Made by a program: the position numbers and the translations under genes. Of a stretch of 53,327 bases of DNA, positions 8,048 through 31,077 are shown one piece after another (position 1 is the stretch's first letter; each line of letters begins with the position of its first letter). Location of the stretch: the IMG/VR virus record IMGVR_UViG_3300025413_000034, positions 1 to 53,327 of that record. One strand, written 5' to 3'. Below the pieces are notes generated by a model. The model was given only the letters and a program-made list of their open reading frames with translations, was not told the origin of the DNA and ran no database searches. This DNA comes from a virus (lineage: Duplodnaviria > Caudoviricetes).

Positions 8048-9640
8048 TTAACTAAAGAAAGGATTAGATGAGATGACTACCTCTGGCATCACAAGGTCTT
8101 GGGTAAGACTGCATGCGATAGCCAAAGAATCTGCAAAGTCATCGTGGGCGTAGGTCTCATCAGGTGCGGCAGCAGAGAAGTTAGGTCCTTTGAACTGAAC
8201 TTCAAGGTCGGTCATCTGCTGATAAAAACGCTTCCATGTACGCAATCTGCGAGTTTTTGCATGGGCAGGCCACGTAATGAGTTTGCGCTGAATAAGAGCC
8301 TGCAGATGTTTCCATCGCTTTGATTGCTCTGATTGACTGGATGTGAGAGCCACGACTCTAGAACGTGGAAGCAATAGAGTAAGACGTTGCGCTACTGCAT
8401 CACCCACACCATTGCCGTCTACTCCAGCAACAAGGACGTCGTAGTTAGATAAGAAGTTGACGATCTGGAAGTACTGCTCTTCCCAGTCCGCTCCCTGGAT
8501 CTCTAGCCAGTTAAGTACCTTATGCTCAAAGTATCCAAATTCATCGGGGCGATCCCAGTCAACCCACACAACAGTCACAACTGTTGAGTCAGTCTTACGG
8601 GCTGGGTCGATACCCACCACCACTGGGGTCTTATGCCAGGACTTCACTAACTCTTGAGAGGTATCGCCTAGTTCATCCATGATGGCTGAGGTAACGAACA
8701 TACCGCGCTCAAGGAGCCACTTACAGTTGTACGACATCTGGAACTCATCCGAGTCCTCACCAATACGCAGCATCTCTTTCTTGATAGAGCGCTCGTAGTT
8801 GGGGTTGTACTTAATAACCTCTTTCCAGTCCCACTGGAAGTGATTCTGTCTGGAGTTACGCCCAGTCTGTCGGCGCTTGTTTAACTGAATAGCCTTATAG
8901 AAGTTGTTCTTACTGGTTGTAGGTGTTCCAGTCTTGACCATGGTTCCTGCGTAGTACGCCAACATAGGCGCGATTGACTTGGATACTACGAAGTCATCAG
9001 CCTCTTGACACTCATCGATAACGATAAGATGGAACGACTTAGATTCAATCTTTGCTCGTGGGTTTGCGGTCATCATCGTCATAGTCGAGCCAGATTTGGT
9101 CAACTTGATCTGACGAGTTACTCCACCTACACGGGCAGCCTTATCGTCGATCTCAACGTCATTAAGAATCTCTGTAGCACGCTCAGAGGTTAAACGGGTA
9201 ACGCATCGACCAAAGAGTGTTTCAGCCTGTGACTCTGTAGGAGCGAATAGCCCAACCCATAGTCCATCTTTAAATTTGCCAAGAAGATCTGGGTACAACT
9301 TAGCAAGTCTAGGAAGAAGGATCATTAGCGTCACAACAGTGTCAGCCACTGTCTCTGACTTGCCTGACTGACGAGCGGCTAGGGCTGTAATCTCTTCTGC
9401 GTCATTGATGAGGACAGACTCAATAAGCCGTCTAGCCAATGGCTTCTGATATGGGTGAAGATCGTGTCCTACAAGTTCTTTAAGAAAGAGCATGATCTTG
9501 TCGATCAGTTTGTCTACAAATTGCTGAGATAGTTCGTCTAACTGTTCGTCAGGCTCTTCTTCTGCAGGCTTATCTTCCTGCAAGAAGAACTCAGGAGTAA
9601 TCTCCTCAAACTTCTCATCGTCAAATGACTCGGTGGTCAC
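8048..9640 (-). CDS. terL: Terminase large subunit
   Basis: Walker A ARQSGKS, Walker B LIVIDE, coupling motif TGT, nuclease GIDPA and HDDFADS. Confidence 0.95.
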   Translation of the reverse strand: MTTESFDDEKFEEITPEFFLQEDKPAEEEPDEQLDELSQQFVDKLIDKIMLFLKELVGHDLHPYQKPLARRLIESVLINDAEEITALAARQSGKSETVADTVVTLMILLPRLAKLYPDLLGKFKDGLWVGLFAPTESQAETLFGRCVTRLTSERATEILNDVEIDDKAARVGGVTRQIKLTKSGSTMTMMTANPRAKIESKSFHLIVIDECQEADDFVVSKSIAPMLAYYAGTMVKTGTPTTSKNNFYKAIQLNKRRQTGRNSRQNHFQWDWKEVIKYNPNYERSIKKEMLRIGEDSDEFQMSYNCKWLLERGMFVTSAIMDELGDTSQELVKSWHKTPVVVGIDPARKTDSTVVTVVWVDWDRPDEFGYFEHKVLNWLEIQGADWEEQYFQIVNFLSNYDVLVAGVDGNGVGDAVAQRLTLLLPRSRVVALTSSQSEQSKRWKHLQALIQRKLITWPAHAKTRRLRTWKRFYQQMTDLEVQFKGPNFSAAAPDETYAHDDFADSLAIACSLTQDLVMPEVVISSNPFFS

Positions 9641-9870
9641 AGGGAGCGTCTCTCTAGTTCTTGCGCGATGGCGTGAAAGACTTCAGCGCCCAGTTTTACC
9701 TCAGCAAGATCATCTTTGCTCTGAGTCCTTTGCCAACTGGAAATATGTTTGCCAATCGTAAACATCGACTGTTCCATCCATGCTACTAAGTCTGGCGTAG
9801 AGATCATCGAGACTCTTTTCTCGATCCGACTTTGGGGGCGGTGTCCATCCCGCTTCTTCCGTAAATTCAT
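9637..9870 (-). CDS. Hypothetical protein
   Basis: 77 aa; stop overlaps the TerL start (GTGA). Confidence 0.55.
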   Translation of the reverse strand: MNLRKKRDGHRPQSRIEKRVSMISTPDLVAWMEQSMFTIGKHISSWQRTQSKDDLAEVKLGAEVFHAIAQELERRSL

Positions 9871-10111
9871 CTTCTGTCACAATCCTTAGTCCGATAAGTT
9901 TGTCAACTTCACCTACGTCTGTTTGTCCAGTCCATCTTCCTAATACTAACGCTCTGTATCTAGGAAGTCTTACTATGAGGGGATTAGCCGTCCTGTATGG
10001 GGCTTCTGTCTCTTGAGTCCAGCCACGAGTAATGACTTTGTTGTTCCACTCATAAGGGAACTTGGTAACCTGTACAAAGTGTCGTGGTCCGATTTTATGC
10101 GTCTTTGGCAT
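9710..10111 (-). CDS. Hypothetical protein
   Basis: 133 aa ORF following the KTSC gene; overlaps the next ORF by 161 nt. Confidence 0.55.
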   Translation of the reverse strand: MPKTHKIGPRHFVQVTKFPYEWNNKVITRGWTQETEAPYRTANPLIVRLPRYRALVLGRWTGQTDVGEVDKLIGLRIVTEDEFTEEAGWTPPPKSDREKSLDDLYARLSSMDGTVDVYDWQTYFQLAKDSEQR

Positions 10112-10120
10112 TTCTGCTTC

Positions 10121-10891
10121 CTATTTAATGGGCCGTATGTATCTCTGGTTAACCGAGGTCTTACCTTTTTTGGTAGTACCGTATTTCTTGCCATAGTGTA
10201 ACTGAGATCCACGGGCAAACTTGTAGAAGGCCTTACGAGCCGTGGCAGAGATAGAACTCTGGTCTGCTACCCCACGAGGCTTAAAGTCCAAATACTTGTA
10301 GATAAATTGGCCTTTAGATACGCGAGCCTTAAATGCAGTCCACTCTGATGGGGTGACTTCGTAGTAGTTGTACAGGGTTCCATCACGGAACATCACTGTG
10401 ATCTTCTCTTCATCTTCATCATAGCCAGCGGCTACTGTACGAGGACGGTTAATATCTGTAGTTGATGTTGGGACAACTGTAAGAGGAGCAGGGGATTCAT
10501 CCTCATCAAGTTGGGCTCCATATGAGCCAGGAATAGTGGGGTTGTCTTCACCCTCTGTAACATCTTCCCATTGTCTCTTGTAGGAAAGTTCTGCAGGAAG
10601 TCCTGCCATGTTGTTATAGGTTGCACCGTTTGTATCGTAGTACTTAACGATGTCTTTCATTCCAATAATTTCTTTAAACTCACCAAACTCGCCAAGAGAA
10701 GAGGCTGTTGGGGCGCTTTGGAACGGATTCTCTACACCAGTCATTTTTGCAATGCCAGCGGTTTGTCGAGAACCAAAACCGTACATAGAGCCTAACTGCT
10801 CTAAGGGGCTGCGTAGTTCCCCAGATGATGGCGTAGCCACACGCGTTTTGCGTGAGGAACTACCACCACCTGAGGGACGACGACTAGGCAT
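10121..10891 (-). CDS. KTSC-domain protein
   Basis: AGYDEDEEKITVMFRDGTLYNYYEV...F....SKGQF matches the KTSC signature. Confidence 0.8.
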   Translation of the reverse strand: MPSRRPSGGGSSSRKTRVATPSSGELRSPLEQLGSMYGFGSRQTAGIAKMTGVENPFQSAPTASSLGEFGEFKEIIGMKDIVKYYDTNGATYNNMAGLPAELSYKRQWEDVTEGEDNPTIPGSYGAQLDEDESPAPLTVVPTSTTDINRPRTVAAGYDEDEEKITVMFRDGTLYNYYEVTPSEWTAFKARVSKGQFIYKYLDFKPRGVADQSSISATARKAFYKFARGSQLHYGKKYGTTKKGKTSVNQRYIRPIK

Positions 10892-10895
10892 TAGA

Positions 10896-11558
10896 TTAGG
10901 ATGCGAAGTATGGTGTGATTGTTACGGTGTCACCGACTGCTGCAGATGTACCTGCTGCAGTACCTTGTGCGTAGATTGTGCCCGCACGAGCAACGACCTT
11001 AGCAGTAACGCCTGTGATACCAGAGTGGGTTGTGATATCTGCGTGTGTTTGTGCCCAACGGATGTTATTAGCATCTGGAACAACGGTGATGGTGTGTGTA
11101 CCATTAAGGTCAGAGTCATTTGATGCTGAACCTGAACCGTTTGTAAGACCAGCGATTGTTACAACATCGCCAACCTTGTATCCGTGAGCAGTTACAGTTA
11201 CAGATGCAACGTTAGATGTAAGTGTAATTGCTGTAAGCGCTGGTGTGAATGCAGCCTGTGGAGATGCAACAAGTTCAGCGTCTAGAAGAGCATCTGTTGC
11301 ATTTGCGGTTGTAAGACCAAGAACGTTTGGAACTACAACATAGTCAACTCCGCCAGATTGAGAACCTGTGGTGTTTGGTGTGTATCCAGGATAGCCATTC
11401 CAGCCATCTTCTGCGATGTTATGTGAATCCAAGGCGTAATTTAACTTAGCACCTGTTGCACGAACATCGTTTGGTTGTAGTGGGAAGTTACCCCACACAA
11501 AATCTACTGCCACGTTTCCCGCTGAATCGAGAAGGTGACCGTCGTTATTAGTAGCCAT
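10896..11558 (-). CDS. Virion protein with interrupted PASTA-like domain
   Basis: VPNVLGLT..NA...L and GTIYAQ..AAGT.....TVTI halves flank a TAHGYKVGDVVTI beta domain. Confidence 0.55.
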   Translation of the reverse strand: MATNNDGHLLDSAGNVAVDFVWGNFPLQPNDVRATGAKLNYALDSHNIAEDGWNGYPGYTPNTTGSQSGGVDYVVVPNVLGLTTANATDALLDAELVASPQAAFTPALTAITLTSNVASVTVTAHGYKVGDVVTIAGLTNGSGSASNDSDLNGTHTITVVPDANNIRWAQTHADITTHSGITGVTAKVVARAGTIYAQGTAAGTSAAVGDTVTITPYFAS

Positions 11559-26912: not shown

Positions 26913-27073
26913 TTCACGTCCTTACAGGCCTTGCAGCCACATTGTAGGTTGACACATGGGCAATCCTCGTCAGATGGCAGTAAACCGCTGCCTCTGCACC
27001 ACTCACAGGCTGTCATATGGTGATTATGTCAGAGAGAGGTTTGTTACACACTCTATGTGTTAGGCTACTATCT

Positions 27074-28093
27074 ATGAACCCATCCGTCATTCGTGAGATC
27101 TGTGGAACTGAATCAGGCTACAGAAAACATAGAAGAGAAGATGAGAAGCGCTGTGAGGAGTGCACCGTTGCTCATAACGAGCACCGCCGCAAGACATACA
27201 CCCCTGATAAGCAGAGGGCTCACAAAGAGAAGTATGAAGAGAAGGTCATCAAGCCAGCCCGCATCGCTCGCAAGAAGGCGCAGGAAGAGGCTAGGGCTAA
27301 AAAGAAAGCGGAGGCTCTGGCTCGCAAAGAGGAGAGACGACAGCGCGGCATCTTGTACAAACAAGAGAAGGAACGCCGTCGTATTGCTCATCAGGAGAAG
27401 TTACTGGCTATTGCTGAGCGTAAACGCATAGAGCGTGAGGGTATAGAGCAGCGTAAGGCTGAGAAGGCGTTACTCAGAGAGAAAAAACTCCTAGAGAAAA
27501 AACTCCTAGAGGCCGAGAATAAGCGTATAGCCAGAGAAGAGAGAAAGCAACGCTCGCTAGAACGCCAGGCTCGCCTTGCCGCTGAAAAAGAGGCTAAAGC
27601 CCTAGAGAAGGCTAAAAAGCAGGAGATGCTCAATAACCAACACGGAGTTACTGTGGGTGACTACGACCGTTGCCGTAAAAATAACAATGGCAATGCCTGC
27701 GGCCTCTGCAAGGGTGTCGTGAATGCCTATGTGTCTCAAAAATCCAAGGAACCTGCATATAAAGACAGGGAAAAAGAGTGGAGAAAGAACAACCCACATC
27801 GTAGACCCCACAGTAACCGTGAGAGAGCCATTAAACGGGGCGTGCCTACCCAGTACTACACCCGTCAACAGATCATTGACCGTGATGGTACGGACTGCTA
27901 CCTCTGCCATCTACCCCTTGACTTTGAGGCAAACCACGTCCAAGGCCAGCCTGGGTGGGAGTTATACCCTCATGTAGAGCATGTGGTGCCCCTTGCCAAG
28001 GGCGGTCATGACATCCTTGATAACGTCAAGTTAGCCCATGCCAAATGCAACATCGACAAGGGCGTGAAACTCATAGAAAAGGCTACTGTCTGA
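27074..28093 (+). CDS. HNH endonuclease with long charged coiled coil and two Zn motifs
   Basis: C-terminal CYLC...HVEHVVPLAKGG.D...N....H..CN; N-terminal CGTESGYRKH; start inferred from a leaderless TGtTAGGCT promoter. Confidence 0.85.
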   Translation: MNPSVIREICGTESGYRKHRREDEKRCEECTVAHNEHRRKTYTPDKQRAHKEKYEEKVIKPARIARKKAQEEARAKKKAEALARKEERRQRGILYKQEKERRRIAHQEKLLAIAERKRIEREGIEQRKAEKALLREKKLLEKKLLEAENKRIAREERKQRSLERQARLAAEKEAKALEKAKKQEMLNNQHGVTVGDYDRCRKNNNGNACGLCKGVVNAYVSQKSKEPAYKDREKEWRKNNPHRRPHSNRERAIKRGVPTQYYTRQQIIDRDGTDCYLCHLPLDFEANHVQGQPGWELYPHVEHVVPLAKGGHDILDNVKLAHAKCNIDKGVKLIEKATV

Positions 28094-28672
28094 CTTTTTA
28101 AGCCTCAACTCTTATGTGGTAGGGGTGGTAAAAGTGGTTTTTGGCTACTCTAAATCGAAAAAAGTCAAATGTCGAGTCTGAGCCCTGGGCCTGTTCCCTG
28201 TGCGATCGCATCTAACCATGGGGGGTGGCAGGGGGTGGCGGTGTTACCACTCTGCACCTCATTACAAGTCAGGTGCAGATGCGGTAACACGCGCATGAAT
28301 GTCACTCTGCATTATGATCTGGTGACAATCTTGATGACGATGCATCGATGCGACTCGGCTACTGTCGCAATTCGATGCAGGACTGTGCGGATACGACCAG
28401 ACTGTCAGGTCTCCGACCTGCTTCTTATCAGATGCAACCACGATCACCACTGCAACATCAACACTGTCGCATTCATTCATTCATTGCAATGTGTCCGATG
28501 TATGCGGATTAATTACATGACATCGATACACGCATTCGATCATTCATTCAATGCATCGATGTCATGTGATCAATGCAGTGAGTGATCTCTTCTCTCTCTT
28601 CTTCTTCTCTCTTGTCATTATCTGGAAGAAAAAACTCATGGCGCGATTTCGGCTGACATCGTGACATCGTGA

Positions 28673-28730
28673 TAATTGAACTTTCAACTATGTAATTGAA
28701 CATTCAACTAACTATTTGAAACTTCAACTA
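28673..28730. repeat. Three phased 18-bp palindromic direct repeats (20-bp period)
   Basis: TAATTGAACTTTCAACTA, TAATTGAACATTCAACTA, TATTTGAAACTTCAACTA. Confidence 0.9.
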
Positions 28731-28731
28731 A

Positions 28732-28758
28732 TTAGCACTCACTCACTCCGAGTGCCAA
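28732..28758. promoter_or_regulatory. CIRCE element (HrcA operator)
   Basis: TTAGCACTC-N9-GAGTGCCAA; one mismatch to the consensus TTAGCACTC-N9-GAGTGCTAA. Confidence 0.85.
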
Positions 28759-28914
28759 CGATCTGCACAATTTGGACAATCCCGACATCGCAATCACTCC
28801 ATGACTGGTCATACTTACTTCACGCATGGAATTATGCATATAAATCGGACATATTGACCCACCACATCGGTGCGCGTGTTTGTGTTTGTCCGATGTATAC
28901 GGAATACTGGGTCA

Positions 28915-29460
28915 TGAGCACACGCGGTACGCGATCAGAATCCCTCAGGGGCATCGCGCCAGAAGTGAAACAGGCTCAAGGTACGCGAGAGTCAGTCGGT
29001 GTACGCGCAGGCGGTCAGATCTCGATCTGGTCTCTGGTTCAGAATCCCCTAGGGGCAACCAGCGCGGTGACGAAAACCTCTCGTGAGTGCCTAATTACAC
29101 ATGGACTACTCGATCATTCACTCTCTTGATCGATCAGCAAGTCGGTGCGCTCGTCTCCCGAATCTCTACGGAGTAACTCGGCAGTGAAGAGACCAACTGA
29201 TGAACGCGATGAACGCGATGACCCCAGCAATGGGCGAGCGGTGAGCGGTACTTCATCAGCCAGCGTAAACCGACCCAGAGATCTACGAATGACGATAGGC
29301 GAATCAACCTTTAATTAGAGGGGCTGGTCATGGACTGCCAGCAATGGTGCAGGCGGTACTCATTCCGACCGACAGACCAGTGAAGCCAGCCCCCACTAAT
29401 TGCCACCAGATCTTCTCACGACTCGATCGTGGGCGGTTCTGGTAGCAATCTGGTGCTATC
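28915..29460 (+). ncRNA. Candidate large, highly structured non-coding RNA
   Basis: Many nested long-range helices, GCAA tetraloops and a duplicated internal-loop module; no credible CDS. Confidence 0.65.
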
Positions 29461-29480
29461 AATAACGAAAGGCAAATCCA

Positions 29481-29795
29481 ATGAACTACTTCGTAGTCGT
29501 ATGTCCAGACGGCAACTTCAGTCTCCGTCAATCAGAGTCAGCAATTTATACCCACGCATCGTGTCTAACCGATGATGAGGGCTGGGGCGTACTCGGCTTT
29601 CATAAGACCGCAAAGAGTGGCTTGTCCGCATTAAAGACCTACATCAATCGGAAAGTGAAGTACGGCAAGCCTGCGCCATATGTGAGTGGCGTTATTGAGA
29701 CCCAGCAGATCGATCGTAAGACCTACAACGATCTCAAGTCTGGAAAGATCACTGGCTCAGATCTAGTGATCGGCAAGGTCGAAACAGCCCTCTAG
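29481..29795 (+). CDS. First early-region hypothetical protein
   Basis: 104 aa; GAAAGG RBS. Confidence 0.7.
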   Translation: MNYFVVVCPDGNFSLRQSESAIYTHASCLTDDEGWGVLGFHKTAKSGLSALKTYINRKVKYGKPAPYVSGVIETQQIDRKTYNDLKSGKITGSDLVIGKVETAL

Positions 29796-29830
29796 GGCTG
29801 TCTGCTGGTCATGCCAGCACTGACGAGACC
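29777..29830 (+). ncRNA. Type II hammerhead ribozyme
   Basis: GGTC-GAAA-CAGCCC(tcta)GGGCTG-TC^-TGCTGG(tcatg)CCAGCA-CTGACGA-GACC: full catalytic core with three perfect stems. Confidence 0.92.
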
Positions 29831-29884
29831 AATGTCAGCAATCACTCGCAAACTGGTGCAGTGATCAAGTGAAAGGCAAATCCA

Positions 29885-30061
29885 ATGTCACTAACTGCAA
29901 AGGGCAAGATCAAGCAAGAATCTCGCCTCAATCTCGATAACACGATCTACGACTTCGAGATTGACTTCGACACGATCAGCGACCTTGAGGACTTCATCTC
30001 CTACAACCGCAACCAGATCGTGGAAATCCGCTTCACTGGCAAATTGAAGAGGGAGATCTAA
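29885..30061 (+). CDS. 58-aa early protein (not in ORF track)
   Basis: MSLTAKGKIKQESRLNLDN...; same GAAAGGCAAATCCAATG leader as the gene at 29481. Confidence 0.65.
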   Translation: MSLTAKGKIKQESRLNLDNTIYDFEIDFDTISDLEDFISYNRNQIVEIRFTGKLKREI

Positions 30062-30065
30062 TTCA

Positions 30066-30248
30066 ATGGCAAAGCAACGCGTATTTATCGACACCGAAGG
30101 CAAGATCGTTGCCAAAGGCACGATCTCCCCTCAACTCATCGACCTGCTTCTCGCAGACGGCACTCGCTTCTTCTCGACCCGATCAGAGGGCTTCGAGATC
30201 AACTTCATCAAGTCACTCAACATCGCAAAGATCGTGAAAGGGGCGTAA
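30066..30248 (+). CDS. Hypothetical early protein
   Basis: 60 aa; GAGGGAG RBS. Confidence 0.6.
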   Translation: MAKQRVFIDTEGKIVAKGTISPQLIDLLLADGTRFFSTRSEGFEINFIKSLNIAKIVKGA

Positions 30249-30250
30249 TC

Positions 30251-30766
30251 ATGAGCAACATTCGATGCTCTACCTGCGTTATCAAGGGGCAGGGAATCTG
30301 CCTCCATGTCTCATTCGAATCAGCCATTCAGATCGATCATCTCACCGATGATCAACTCGATCTCGTCTCTGAGATCTTGAAGGGCATCAAGTGAAGTGCA
30401 TCGTCTGCCAGCGCGCTCTCACTTTCAACACTCGTCAGACTGCCCGATGCAAGTGCGGTGCAGTTGCAAAGATCACCAATAATCAAGTCTCATTCTCAGT
30501 AGGAGGAGTCAAATAATGGAACTCAATAACATCGACAACGACCTAGAAGTGCTACGCAATTCGGTAGCACCCAGCCTCTACGCCTATCTCGTGGCATCAC
30601 TGTCACCAGAGAAGGTGAGCGCATGAAGGCACTGGGCGCGATCTTCTCAGCACTACTCATCGCTGGCGTGGCATTCATTGCCACGCATCACCCTGTCTAT
30701 GGCAAGTGTCATCAGGTCGCAGATCAGCGAATCTGCACACTCATCAAGTGGGAGGGCAATAAGTGA
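30251..30766 (+). other. Run of four coupled mini-ORFs (30251-30394, 30391-30516, 30516-30626, 30623-30766)
   Basis: Manual translation; GTGA, TAATG and ATGA overlaps. Confidence 0.55.
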
Positions 30767-31077
30767 GCACCAGATACGCAGATATCAAAGGCAAGAGCAC
30801 TACCAATGCAGGAGCGATCGAATACATCGCTAATCGCCAGCCGTTCAAGGCTAATTCCATGGCAGGCGTTTACTTTCAGGAGGGCGATTACCTGCCCACT
30901 GGTCGCTTGCAGAGCGATCTCGTGGCACTCCTCAAGGGTCACAAGCCAGACTTCATCGTCTACTCCTACGGCACGCCTATCGCATGGCATCACGCTGGTG
31001 GCTGGGAGATACCTGCAGTCCGCTACTCAGTGACCACCAGCAAGCATCAGGGCATCGTCAGAAGGGCGGTCTGGTAA
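30763..31077 (+). CDS. Conserved actinophage early hypothetical protein
   Basis: VYSYGTPIAW...YSVTTSKHQ motif. Confidence 0.65.
   Translation: MSTRYADIKGKSTTNAGAIEYIANRQPFKANSMAGVYFQEGDYLPTGRLQSDLVALLKGHKPDFIVYSYGTPIAWHHAGGWEIPAVRYSVTTSKHQGIVRRAVW

Follow-up and report, generated by a model that had tools for sequence, protein, structure and literature searches.

A phage gene whose last codons also spell part of a self-cleaving RNA raises two questions: whether the ribozyme is genuine, and whether translation of the gene governs its cleavage. Such an arrangement had been proposed, from the letters alone, for positions 29777-29830 of a viral DNA, where a type II hammerhead would lie over the stop codon of an early gene and terminating ribosomes would make cleavage conditional on translation. 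We refer to the whole 53,327-nt stretch of DNA that was analysed as the window. It is an IMG/VR phage record (CheckV completeness 53%) whose SPP1-type portal is 55-60% identical to portals of ~113-kb Streptomyces phages. The runs containing its sequence are labelled freshwater metagenomes. Those listed include no RNA run, and the four that were compared consist of contigs, which show no ends of molecules. A DNA similarity search of positions 28000-31000 against 50,697 phage records returned no match.

A predicted hammerhead at the end of ORF1

All conserved hammerhead nucleotides are present at this site, namely C3, U4, G5, A6, N7, G8 and A9, then G12, A13 and A14, the A15.1-U16.1 pair (A29784-U29801) and an H17 that is not G. 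The topology is that of type II: loops cap stems I and III, stem II has no loop, and G29827 and C29780 form the G10.1-C11.1 pair (Table 1). The complete core and perfect stems I-III that had been proposed were found letter by letter and helix by helix, and both the Rfam model and the subclass model described below agree with them. The same is true of the coding 5′ part, as the last six codons of ORF1 (GUC GAA ACA GCC CUC UAG, reading VETAL and stop) make up the 5′ strand of stem II, the GAAA box, the 5′ strand of stem III and loop III. The TAG was likewise placed correctly at the stem III loop, where it straddles the loop and the first 3′ base of the stem, and the predicted cut does fall 7 nt past the stop, since the TAG ends at 29795 and C17 is C29802.

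Folded alone, the 54-mer takes precisely this three-helix junction as its minimum-free-energy (MFE) structure (−24.5 kcal/mol, z −3.56), and 2 of 200 shuffles did as well. The ribozyme lies between ORF1 and ORF2, on the same strand as the surrounding gene block. Neither a terminator nor a sigma-70 promoter was predicted in 29700-29900 as another occupant of the site.

Table 1. Positions of the ribozyme, its parts and the neighbouring features in the window.
Feature	Position	Strand	Basis	Details
17-nt leader, first direct-repeat copy	29467..29483	+	repeat search	GAAAGGCAAATCCAATG; ends in the ORF1 ATG
ORF1	29481..29795	+	ORF translation	104 aa, no Pfam family; ends ..GKVETAL and stop (TAG 29793-95)
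Type II hammerhead ribozyme, predicted	29777..29830	+	core motif, three helices, Rfam and subclass models	
Stem II	29777-80 / 29827-30	+	letters	GGUC / GACC, 4 bp
GAAA core box	29781-84	+	letters	
Stem III	A29784-C29790 / G29795-U29801	+	letters	7 bp; loop UCUA 29791-94
Cleavage triplet GUC	29800-02	+	letters	C17 = C29802
Predicted self-cleavage site	29802..29803	+	H17 position in motif	between C29802 and U29803
Stem I	U29803-U29809 / G29813-A29819	+	letters	7 bp including U.G; loop CAU 29810-12
CUGACGA core box	29820-26	+	letters	
3′ tail segment UGUCAG	29833..29838	+	fold prediction	can pair with CUGACG 29820-25 (5 Watson-Crick pairs and G.U)
Predicted hairpin	29841..29865	+	fold prediction only	6+3 bp; spacer between ribozyme and ORF2 leader
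17-nt leader, second copy	29871..29887	+	repeat search	perfect copy; ends in the ORF2 ATG
ORF2	29885..30061	+	ORF translation	58 aa; first gene on the predicted 3′ cleavage product

Scores and chance expectation

A cmsearch with Hammerhead_II (RF02276), which the sequence-only reading had put forward as a check, supported the site in part. The match covers the full length of the model (positions 1-66), but its 32.2 bits (E 7.8e-5 in a 401-nt search, 2.5e-6 per record) fall under the 37-bit gathering score. The ribozyme is missing from a gathering-level Rfam scan of the window, in which a tRNA is the sole entry. With the same model, L006-L010, examples of the established type II hammerheads, score 41-57 bits. 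A covariance model (R2) made from 33 viral hammerheads of the subclass described below, with the window left out, gave the window ribozyme 64.7 bits (rough E 7e-18) across model positions 1-81 of 81, and no second match in the 97 kb of the window and L002-L005. A sensitive Rfam scan of L002-L005 (43.7 kb) found no hammerhead, and a search for other ribozymes in 28050-29650 of the window gave no E value below 0.9.

A loose descriptor (stems of at least 3-4 bp) had the ribozyme as its only match in the whole window, with stems of 4/7-8/7 bp, and matched none of 300 first-order Markov random windows searched on both strands. Chance is excluded because no random window matches and because the window-free subclass model gives so high a score. 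The sub-threshold Rfam score is explained by a cut-off that missed all 19 tested members of the subclass. At the gathering cut-off, RF02276 reported none of these pseudoknot-less members in 14 viral loci (L014, L016, L022, L024, L028, L041, L057, L062, L064, L074, L079, L085, L088 and L091), and its one match there was a separate pseudoknot-type site in L064. The cut-off appears to under-annotate the pseudoknot-less type II subclass systematically, and given the 19 misses phage annotations would undercount such ribozymes.

A pseudoknot-less subclass of type II hammerheads

An IMG/VR pattern scan with GUCGAAAC..GUC..CUGAYGAGAC yielded at least 80 loci, and the pooled scans yielded at least 111 pattern matches in 88 sources. 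A simple ungapped-stem filter passed 101 distinct sequences; one duplicate was left out, as were nine filter failures that nevertheless look like real hammerheads. Among the matches listed, 34 of the 101 distinct hammerheads, the window included, have in common a stem-loop I of 17 nt closed by a U.G pair, a 4-bp GGUC/GACC stem II and the lack of a pseudoknot between loop I and the tail. Their flanks read ..CAAGGUC and GACCAA.., and the A before stem II is nearly invariant. The window is like the 33 other members, among them L057:4746-4800, L064:3073-3153 (minus strand), L024, L041 and L085, in stem II, stem-loop I and flanks. It differs in the distance to the next ORF start, which has a median of 20 nt after the ribozyme in the subclass and is 55 nt in the window.

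In the alignment of the 34 sequences 98.4% of cells pair, in stems that were partly selected for. The covariation score is 0.75 as opposed to 0.154 in shuffles, none of 500 being as high. The fourth pair of stem II, which selection did not require, is GC in 28 sequences, AU in 6 and unpaired in none. Stem III has undergone paired changes relative to other members, with ACAGCCC/GGGCUGU in contrast to ACGGCCC/GGGCCGU. The only close variant of the window locus that we saw comes from a strain in run X16, which belongs to another study. It keeps the ribozyme and carries a single identified core change, at the free position N7 (CUGACGA to CUGAUGA). Three nucleotides of its tail are deleted, and one more, unlocated difference lies close to the end of the contig. 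Between the window and this variant there is no covariation at the locus itself.

Origin of the stop-codon overlap

To each hammerhead we assigned an upstream ORF by a heuristic rule, as the longest ORF of at least 40 aa with its stop between 60 nt upstream of the ribozyme and the ribozyme 3′ end. Among the matches listed, this stop begins 2-10 nt before GUC in 82 of 101 hammerheads and 11-60 nt before it in 8; it lies inside the ribozyme in 4, the window included, and 7 have no qualifying upstream ORF. Within the subclass, 22 of the 34 members (window counted, among the matches listed) have a stop that starts 2-10 nt before GUC, whereas that of the window is internal. The other three internal stops are those of L057 (VETARK and stop), of L064 (VETGTAPVMASRAI and stop, ending at the UGA of CUGACGA) and of a doubtful ORF in L061. 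In L057 and L064, as in the window, the upstream ORF enters the ribozyme in the same frame and a tail complementary to the core is present.

The overlap is probably a by-product. The frame concerned usually closes just ahead of GUC; read on, the conserved letters of the ribozyme spell V-E-T-A-L-stop, and an ORF without the earlier stop would simply continue to the TAG in loop III. L011 has such a layout, with ..HHG and a TAG immediately before GUC, followed in frame by VETAL and TAG. Judged by its letters, this is the presumed precursor, from which the loss of one stop would give the form seen in the window. A pattern search of metagenome contigs for a TAR stop in loop III found two loci, L011 and L012, both with an upstream stop before GUC and neither a relative of ORF1. 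As far as these comparisons go, the stop-codon overlap is a rare but recurring minor variant that needs no special mechanism. It marks the rare end of a general rule, the stop 2-10 nt upstream in 82 of 101 among the matches listed, and ideas about translation coupling should be judged on that rule.

Relatives of ORF1 point the same way. A profile search of the whole library with ORF1 gave six matches, of which P0002 is the only close full-length relative and the sole homolog of similar length with high identity (61-65%). P0002 ends in VETAL despite a 3-aa deletion just before it, which fits retention of the ribozyme. P0006, a 99-aa homolog that is 37% identical, stops ~12 residues sooner and lacks VETAL, which suggests that the protein does not need its C-terminal extension. 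Searches of viral contigs for ORF1 relatives, with the single protein and with an alignment, confirmed none. The remaining matches in the library are 3 to 11 short stretches inside much longer proteins of 371, 1101, 2017 and 2585 aa (P0007, P0005, P0004 and P0003), and ORF1 may represent a repeat domain that stands alone.

A tail segment that can pair with the core

In the account of PMC3088659, the majority of type II hammerheads, not all, have a loop I/tail pseudoknot that serves fast cleavage at low Mg2+. In the type II ribozymes presented there, 4-6 bp join the 3′ tail to a long loop I. The window ribozyme lacks such a pseudoknot; its stem II is 4 bp long, and its loop I counts 3 nt, or 5 nt with the U.G pair open. 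The best pairing available is 3 bp (CAU 29810-12 with AUG 29832-34); the X16 variant has lost the tail letters involved, and we rejected the candidate.

The tail has another potential partner. When the ribozyme was folded in a 126-nt context, both the MFE and the centroid structure swapped stem II for the core-tail helix listed in Table 1, which leaves room for neither stem II nor the catalytic core. A fold that keeps the hammerhead comes out 1.5 kcal/mol less stable and accounts for ~1% of the modelled ensemble, in a model that ignores core tertiary energy. In folds of prefixes up to 29845, the MFE structure is still the hammerhead. Fast cleavage is doubtful because there is no pseudoknot and the equilibrium fold of the 126-nt context replaces stem II.

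Of the 34 subclass members, 8 have a core-tail helix of at least 5 Watson-Crick pairs; shuffled tails would give 0.70, and none of 2000 shuffles reached the observed count. Three of the four hammerheads overlapped by an ORF carry it. The partner of N7 follows N7, with C opposite G in L022, L046, L064 and the window and U opposite A in L028, L057 and L088 (twice). In the X16 variant, the change of N7 to U and the loss of three tail letters give a perfect CUGAUG/CAUCAG helix in a new register. As a class-wide feature the helix was rejected (62.6% of cells pair vs 61.8% when shuffled, with 74 of 500 shuffles as high), and we keep it as a feature of a subset. Constrained folds also offered an extension of stem II (29772-75 / 29833-36), which we left uncertain; the X16 deletion removes two of its letters if the upstream letters are unchanged.

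A variable cassette behind a conserved leader

The two leader copies lie 404 nt apart and bracket the unit of ORF1 and ribozyme. The description of ORF1 as the first early gene was not supported by comparison, as an HNH gene (27017-28093, +) lies upstream and ORF1 and the ribozyme are missing from five related contigs that share the upstream region. These five (L138, L146, L150, L154 and L158) match the window up to the leader and then diverge, and none carries ORF1 or a hammerhead; L150 has a homolog of ORF2, behind other genes and without ORF1 or the ribozyme. L002, a 97% identical relative, is without window positions 29486-30059, that is, without ORF1, ribozyme and ORF2. Scans with R2 and RF02276 of BRock, GiJojo, G001-G003 (G003 complete, 99.8 kb), L138, L146, L150, L154 and L158 found no hammerhead, a weak result as they had no positive control. 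Its absence from all relatives examined indicates that the ribozyme is dispensable. Judged from these alignments, ORF1 and the ribozyme together form a small accessory module, not a feature of the lineage, and the site that it occupies after the conserved leader is hypervariable.

Directly after the leader ATG (29484/29485) lies a swap site with at least three alleles: ORF1, ribozyme and ORF2; an ORF3 homolog directly; and a gene set of the L150 type. Run X14 holds the cassette-plus, the L002-like and the L150-like forms together. Strains with and without the cassette in one sample offer a natural way to compare how the early operon is expressed when the ribozyme is present or missing. The HNH gene itself is a 358-aa ORF whose long middle part is rich in Lys, Glu and Arg and whose C terminus has the HNH nuclease motif; it is missing from L002, which has ~680 nt of other sequence in its place.

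The region upstream of the cassette also contains sequence with little coding capacity. Positions 29313-29485 (+), just before the 17-nt leader, are the best-conserved non-coding piece among five related contigs (~73-92% identical by blastn). RNAalifold predicts for them a long helix around a multi-stem domain and a 22-pair hairpin. Ten pairs remain paired although both partners have changed, for the most part in the diverged L158, vs 3.0 +/- 1.4 in shuffles, none of 500 being as high. Several G.U pairs speak for the + strand, and there is no Rfam match. This piece is a candidate structured leader or non-coding RNA, with provisional support as the structure was derived from the same six sequences. 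Further upstream, 28100-29310 (+) is poor in ORFs; three 20-nt repeats stand in tandem at 28673-28732, and several dispersed repeats are also present. It aligns with gaps to L002 and L150 at 65-89% and, from its sequence, resembles a regulatory region or an origin more closely than a single large non-coding RNA under constraint.

Predicted cleavage and its relation to translation

We consider it likely that the site encodes a type II hammerhead of the pseudoknot-less subclass that is genuine and cleaves itself, and that it is transcribed together with the early-side genes of the + strand; from the DNA we infer its cleavage, the transcript structure and an effect on expression. A cut between C29802 and U29803 would part the ORF1 message from that of ORF2 and the downstream genes. 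The release of a large non-coding RNA along with ORF1, as the sequence-only reading had it, goes beyond what the DNA supports. Hammerhead chemistry leaves a 2′,3′-cyclic phosphate on the C29802 side and a 5′-OH on the U29803 side. The stem III hairpin (7 bp), carrying the cyclic phosphate, would form the end of the 5′ product, and the 3′ product would start with the 5′-OH right at the stem I hairpin.

Other accounts of the locus can be given. The Rfam score under the cut-off, the missing pseudoknot and the dispensability among relatives would each suit an inactive relic or a chance look-alike without function, but this is very unlikely, as two strain variants have kept every core nucleotide and the full set of three stems, the independent subclass model scores the site at 64.7 bits, none of the 300 random windows matches and the Rfam cut-off misses the subclass in 19 of 19 cases. 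We regard it as possible, though on balance doubtful, that the ribozyme is slow or switched off. According to the fold models the tail helix (29820-25/29833-38) would capture CUGANGA, so that either only a co-transcriptional fraction cleaves or a post-cleavage lock keeps the products apart. The recurrence of the helix in 8 of 34 members beyond all 2000 shuffles, the tracking of N7 by its partner, the retention of such a helix in X16 in a new register, the fact that the MFE and centroid structures of the longer context contain the helix and its occurrence in three of the four overlapping hammerheads all argue for such sequestration; however, the helix is not class-wide, some of the eight are paralogs (L088 twice), prefixes to 29845 still fold as a hammerhead and the energy models omit core tertiary contacts.

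A ribozyme gated by translation, as envisaged by the sequence-only reading, seems improbable to us. Ribosomes terminating at UAG 29793-95 would melt the 5′ strand of stem II, the GAAA box and stem III, and the extent of cleavage, and with it the uncoupling of ORF1 from the downstream genes, would depend on translation of ORF1. The stop does lie inside the ribozyme, the same-frame overlap recurs in L057:4746-4800 (..VETARK and stop) and L064 (..VETGTAPVMASRAI and stop), and a stop adjoining the ribozyme is the rule (82 of 101 among the matches listed). Yet a true overlap is rare (4 of 101 among the matches listed, one with a doubtful ORF), simple loss of a stop as suggested by L011 explains it, and the P0006 homolog ends earlier without VETAL. 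Translation termination is brief relative to typical hammerhead rates, and occupancy alone would therefore change cleavage little. A ribosome terminating 2-10 nt upstream has a footprint that would span the 5′ strand of the ribozyme, so with the stop at this distance in 82 of 101 (among the matches listed) a terminating ribosome would cover that strand in nearly all. By this argument translation gating is a class-wide possibility and not special to the window locus; if it were true, translation would transiently block folding and not enable cleavage. Somewhat less improbable, but still unlikely, is a kinetically gated switch, in which a conserved core-sequestering tail helix is combined with a stop in the ribozyme or within a ribosome footprint of it and the cleaved fraction of early transcripts is set by a race of transcription, ribosome release and refolding. 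Such a switch would give a functional logic to the near-universal juxtaposition of stop codon and hammerhead in phages.

Comparison with known phage hammerheads

The self-cleaving hammerhead that we favour has the same core, the permuted topology and the phage position between small genes of the type II hammerheads of RF02276, as they are presented by Perreault et al., 2011 (PMC3088659). Its strand and its placement among small non-conserved ORFs agree with the phage context given in PMC3088659 and PMC6155905, where hammerheads flanking small ORFs are proposed to separate messages by self-cleavage. PMC6155905 puts the known phage-associated hammerheads in the thousands and treats their biological role as a still open question. 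In Desulfovibrio vulgaris, cyPhyRNA-seq showed cleavage in vivo for type II hammerheads located close to phage-like and hypothetical genes (PMC8782182). Those are chromosomal loci of a cultured bacterium, for which the relevant passages of PMC8782182 mention no ORF overlap, and we liken them to the window by description and not by sequence.

Our search of the literature for a phage type II hammerhead that overlaps a stop codon, or that carries a core-sequestering tail, found none. In the main text of PMC3088659 the terms 'stop codon' and 'coding region' each occur 0 times; its supplements (alignments and Figures S4-S5) may already describe pseudoknot-less forms. By its sequence the window ribozyme is very probably an ordinary type II hammerhead of the kind common in phages, with a rare ORF overlap, membership of a subclass missed by Rfam and a possible core-sequestering tail as extras. 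It adds one more member and leaves the general picture of phage hammerheads unchanged.

Two further loci were noted in the course of the scans. L056, an IMG/VR contig, has, among the matches listed, seven type II hammerheads in ~3 kb (8402-11317), one behind each small ORF. PMC3088659 describes arrays of genes and ribozymes, of which this is an extreme example. In run X16, record 18, an unrelated, abundant 17.3-kb contig with a depth of ~150, matches only positions 29800-29832 of the window, and its loose end before the match reads ..GGCCGAAAC... By these letters it is another type II hammerhead, from a different genome of that sample, with stem I and the core nearly identical to those of the window.
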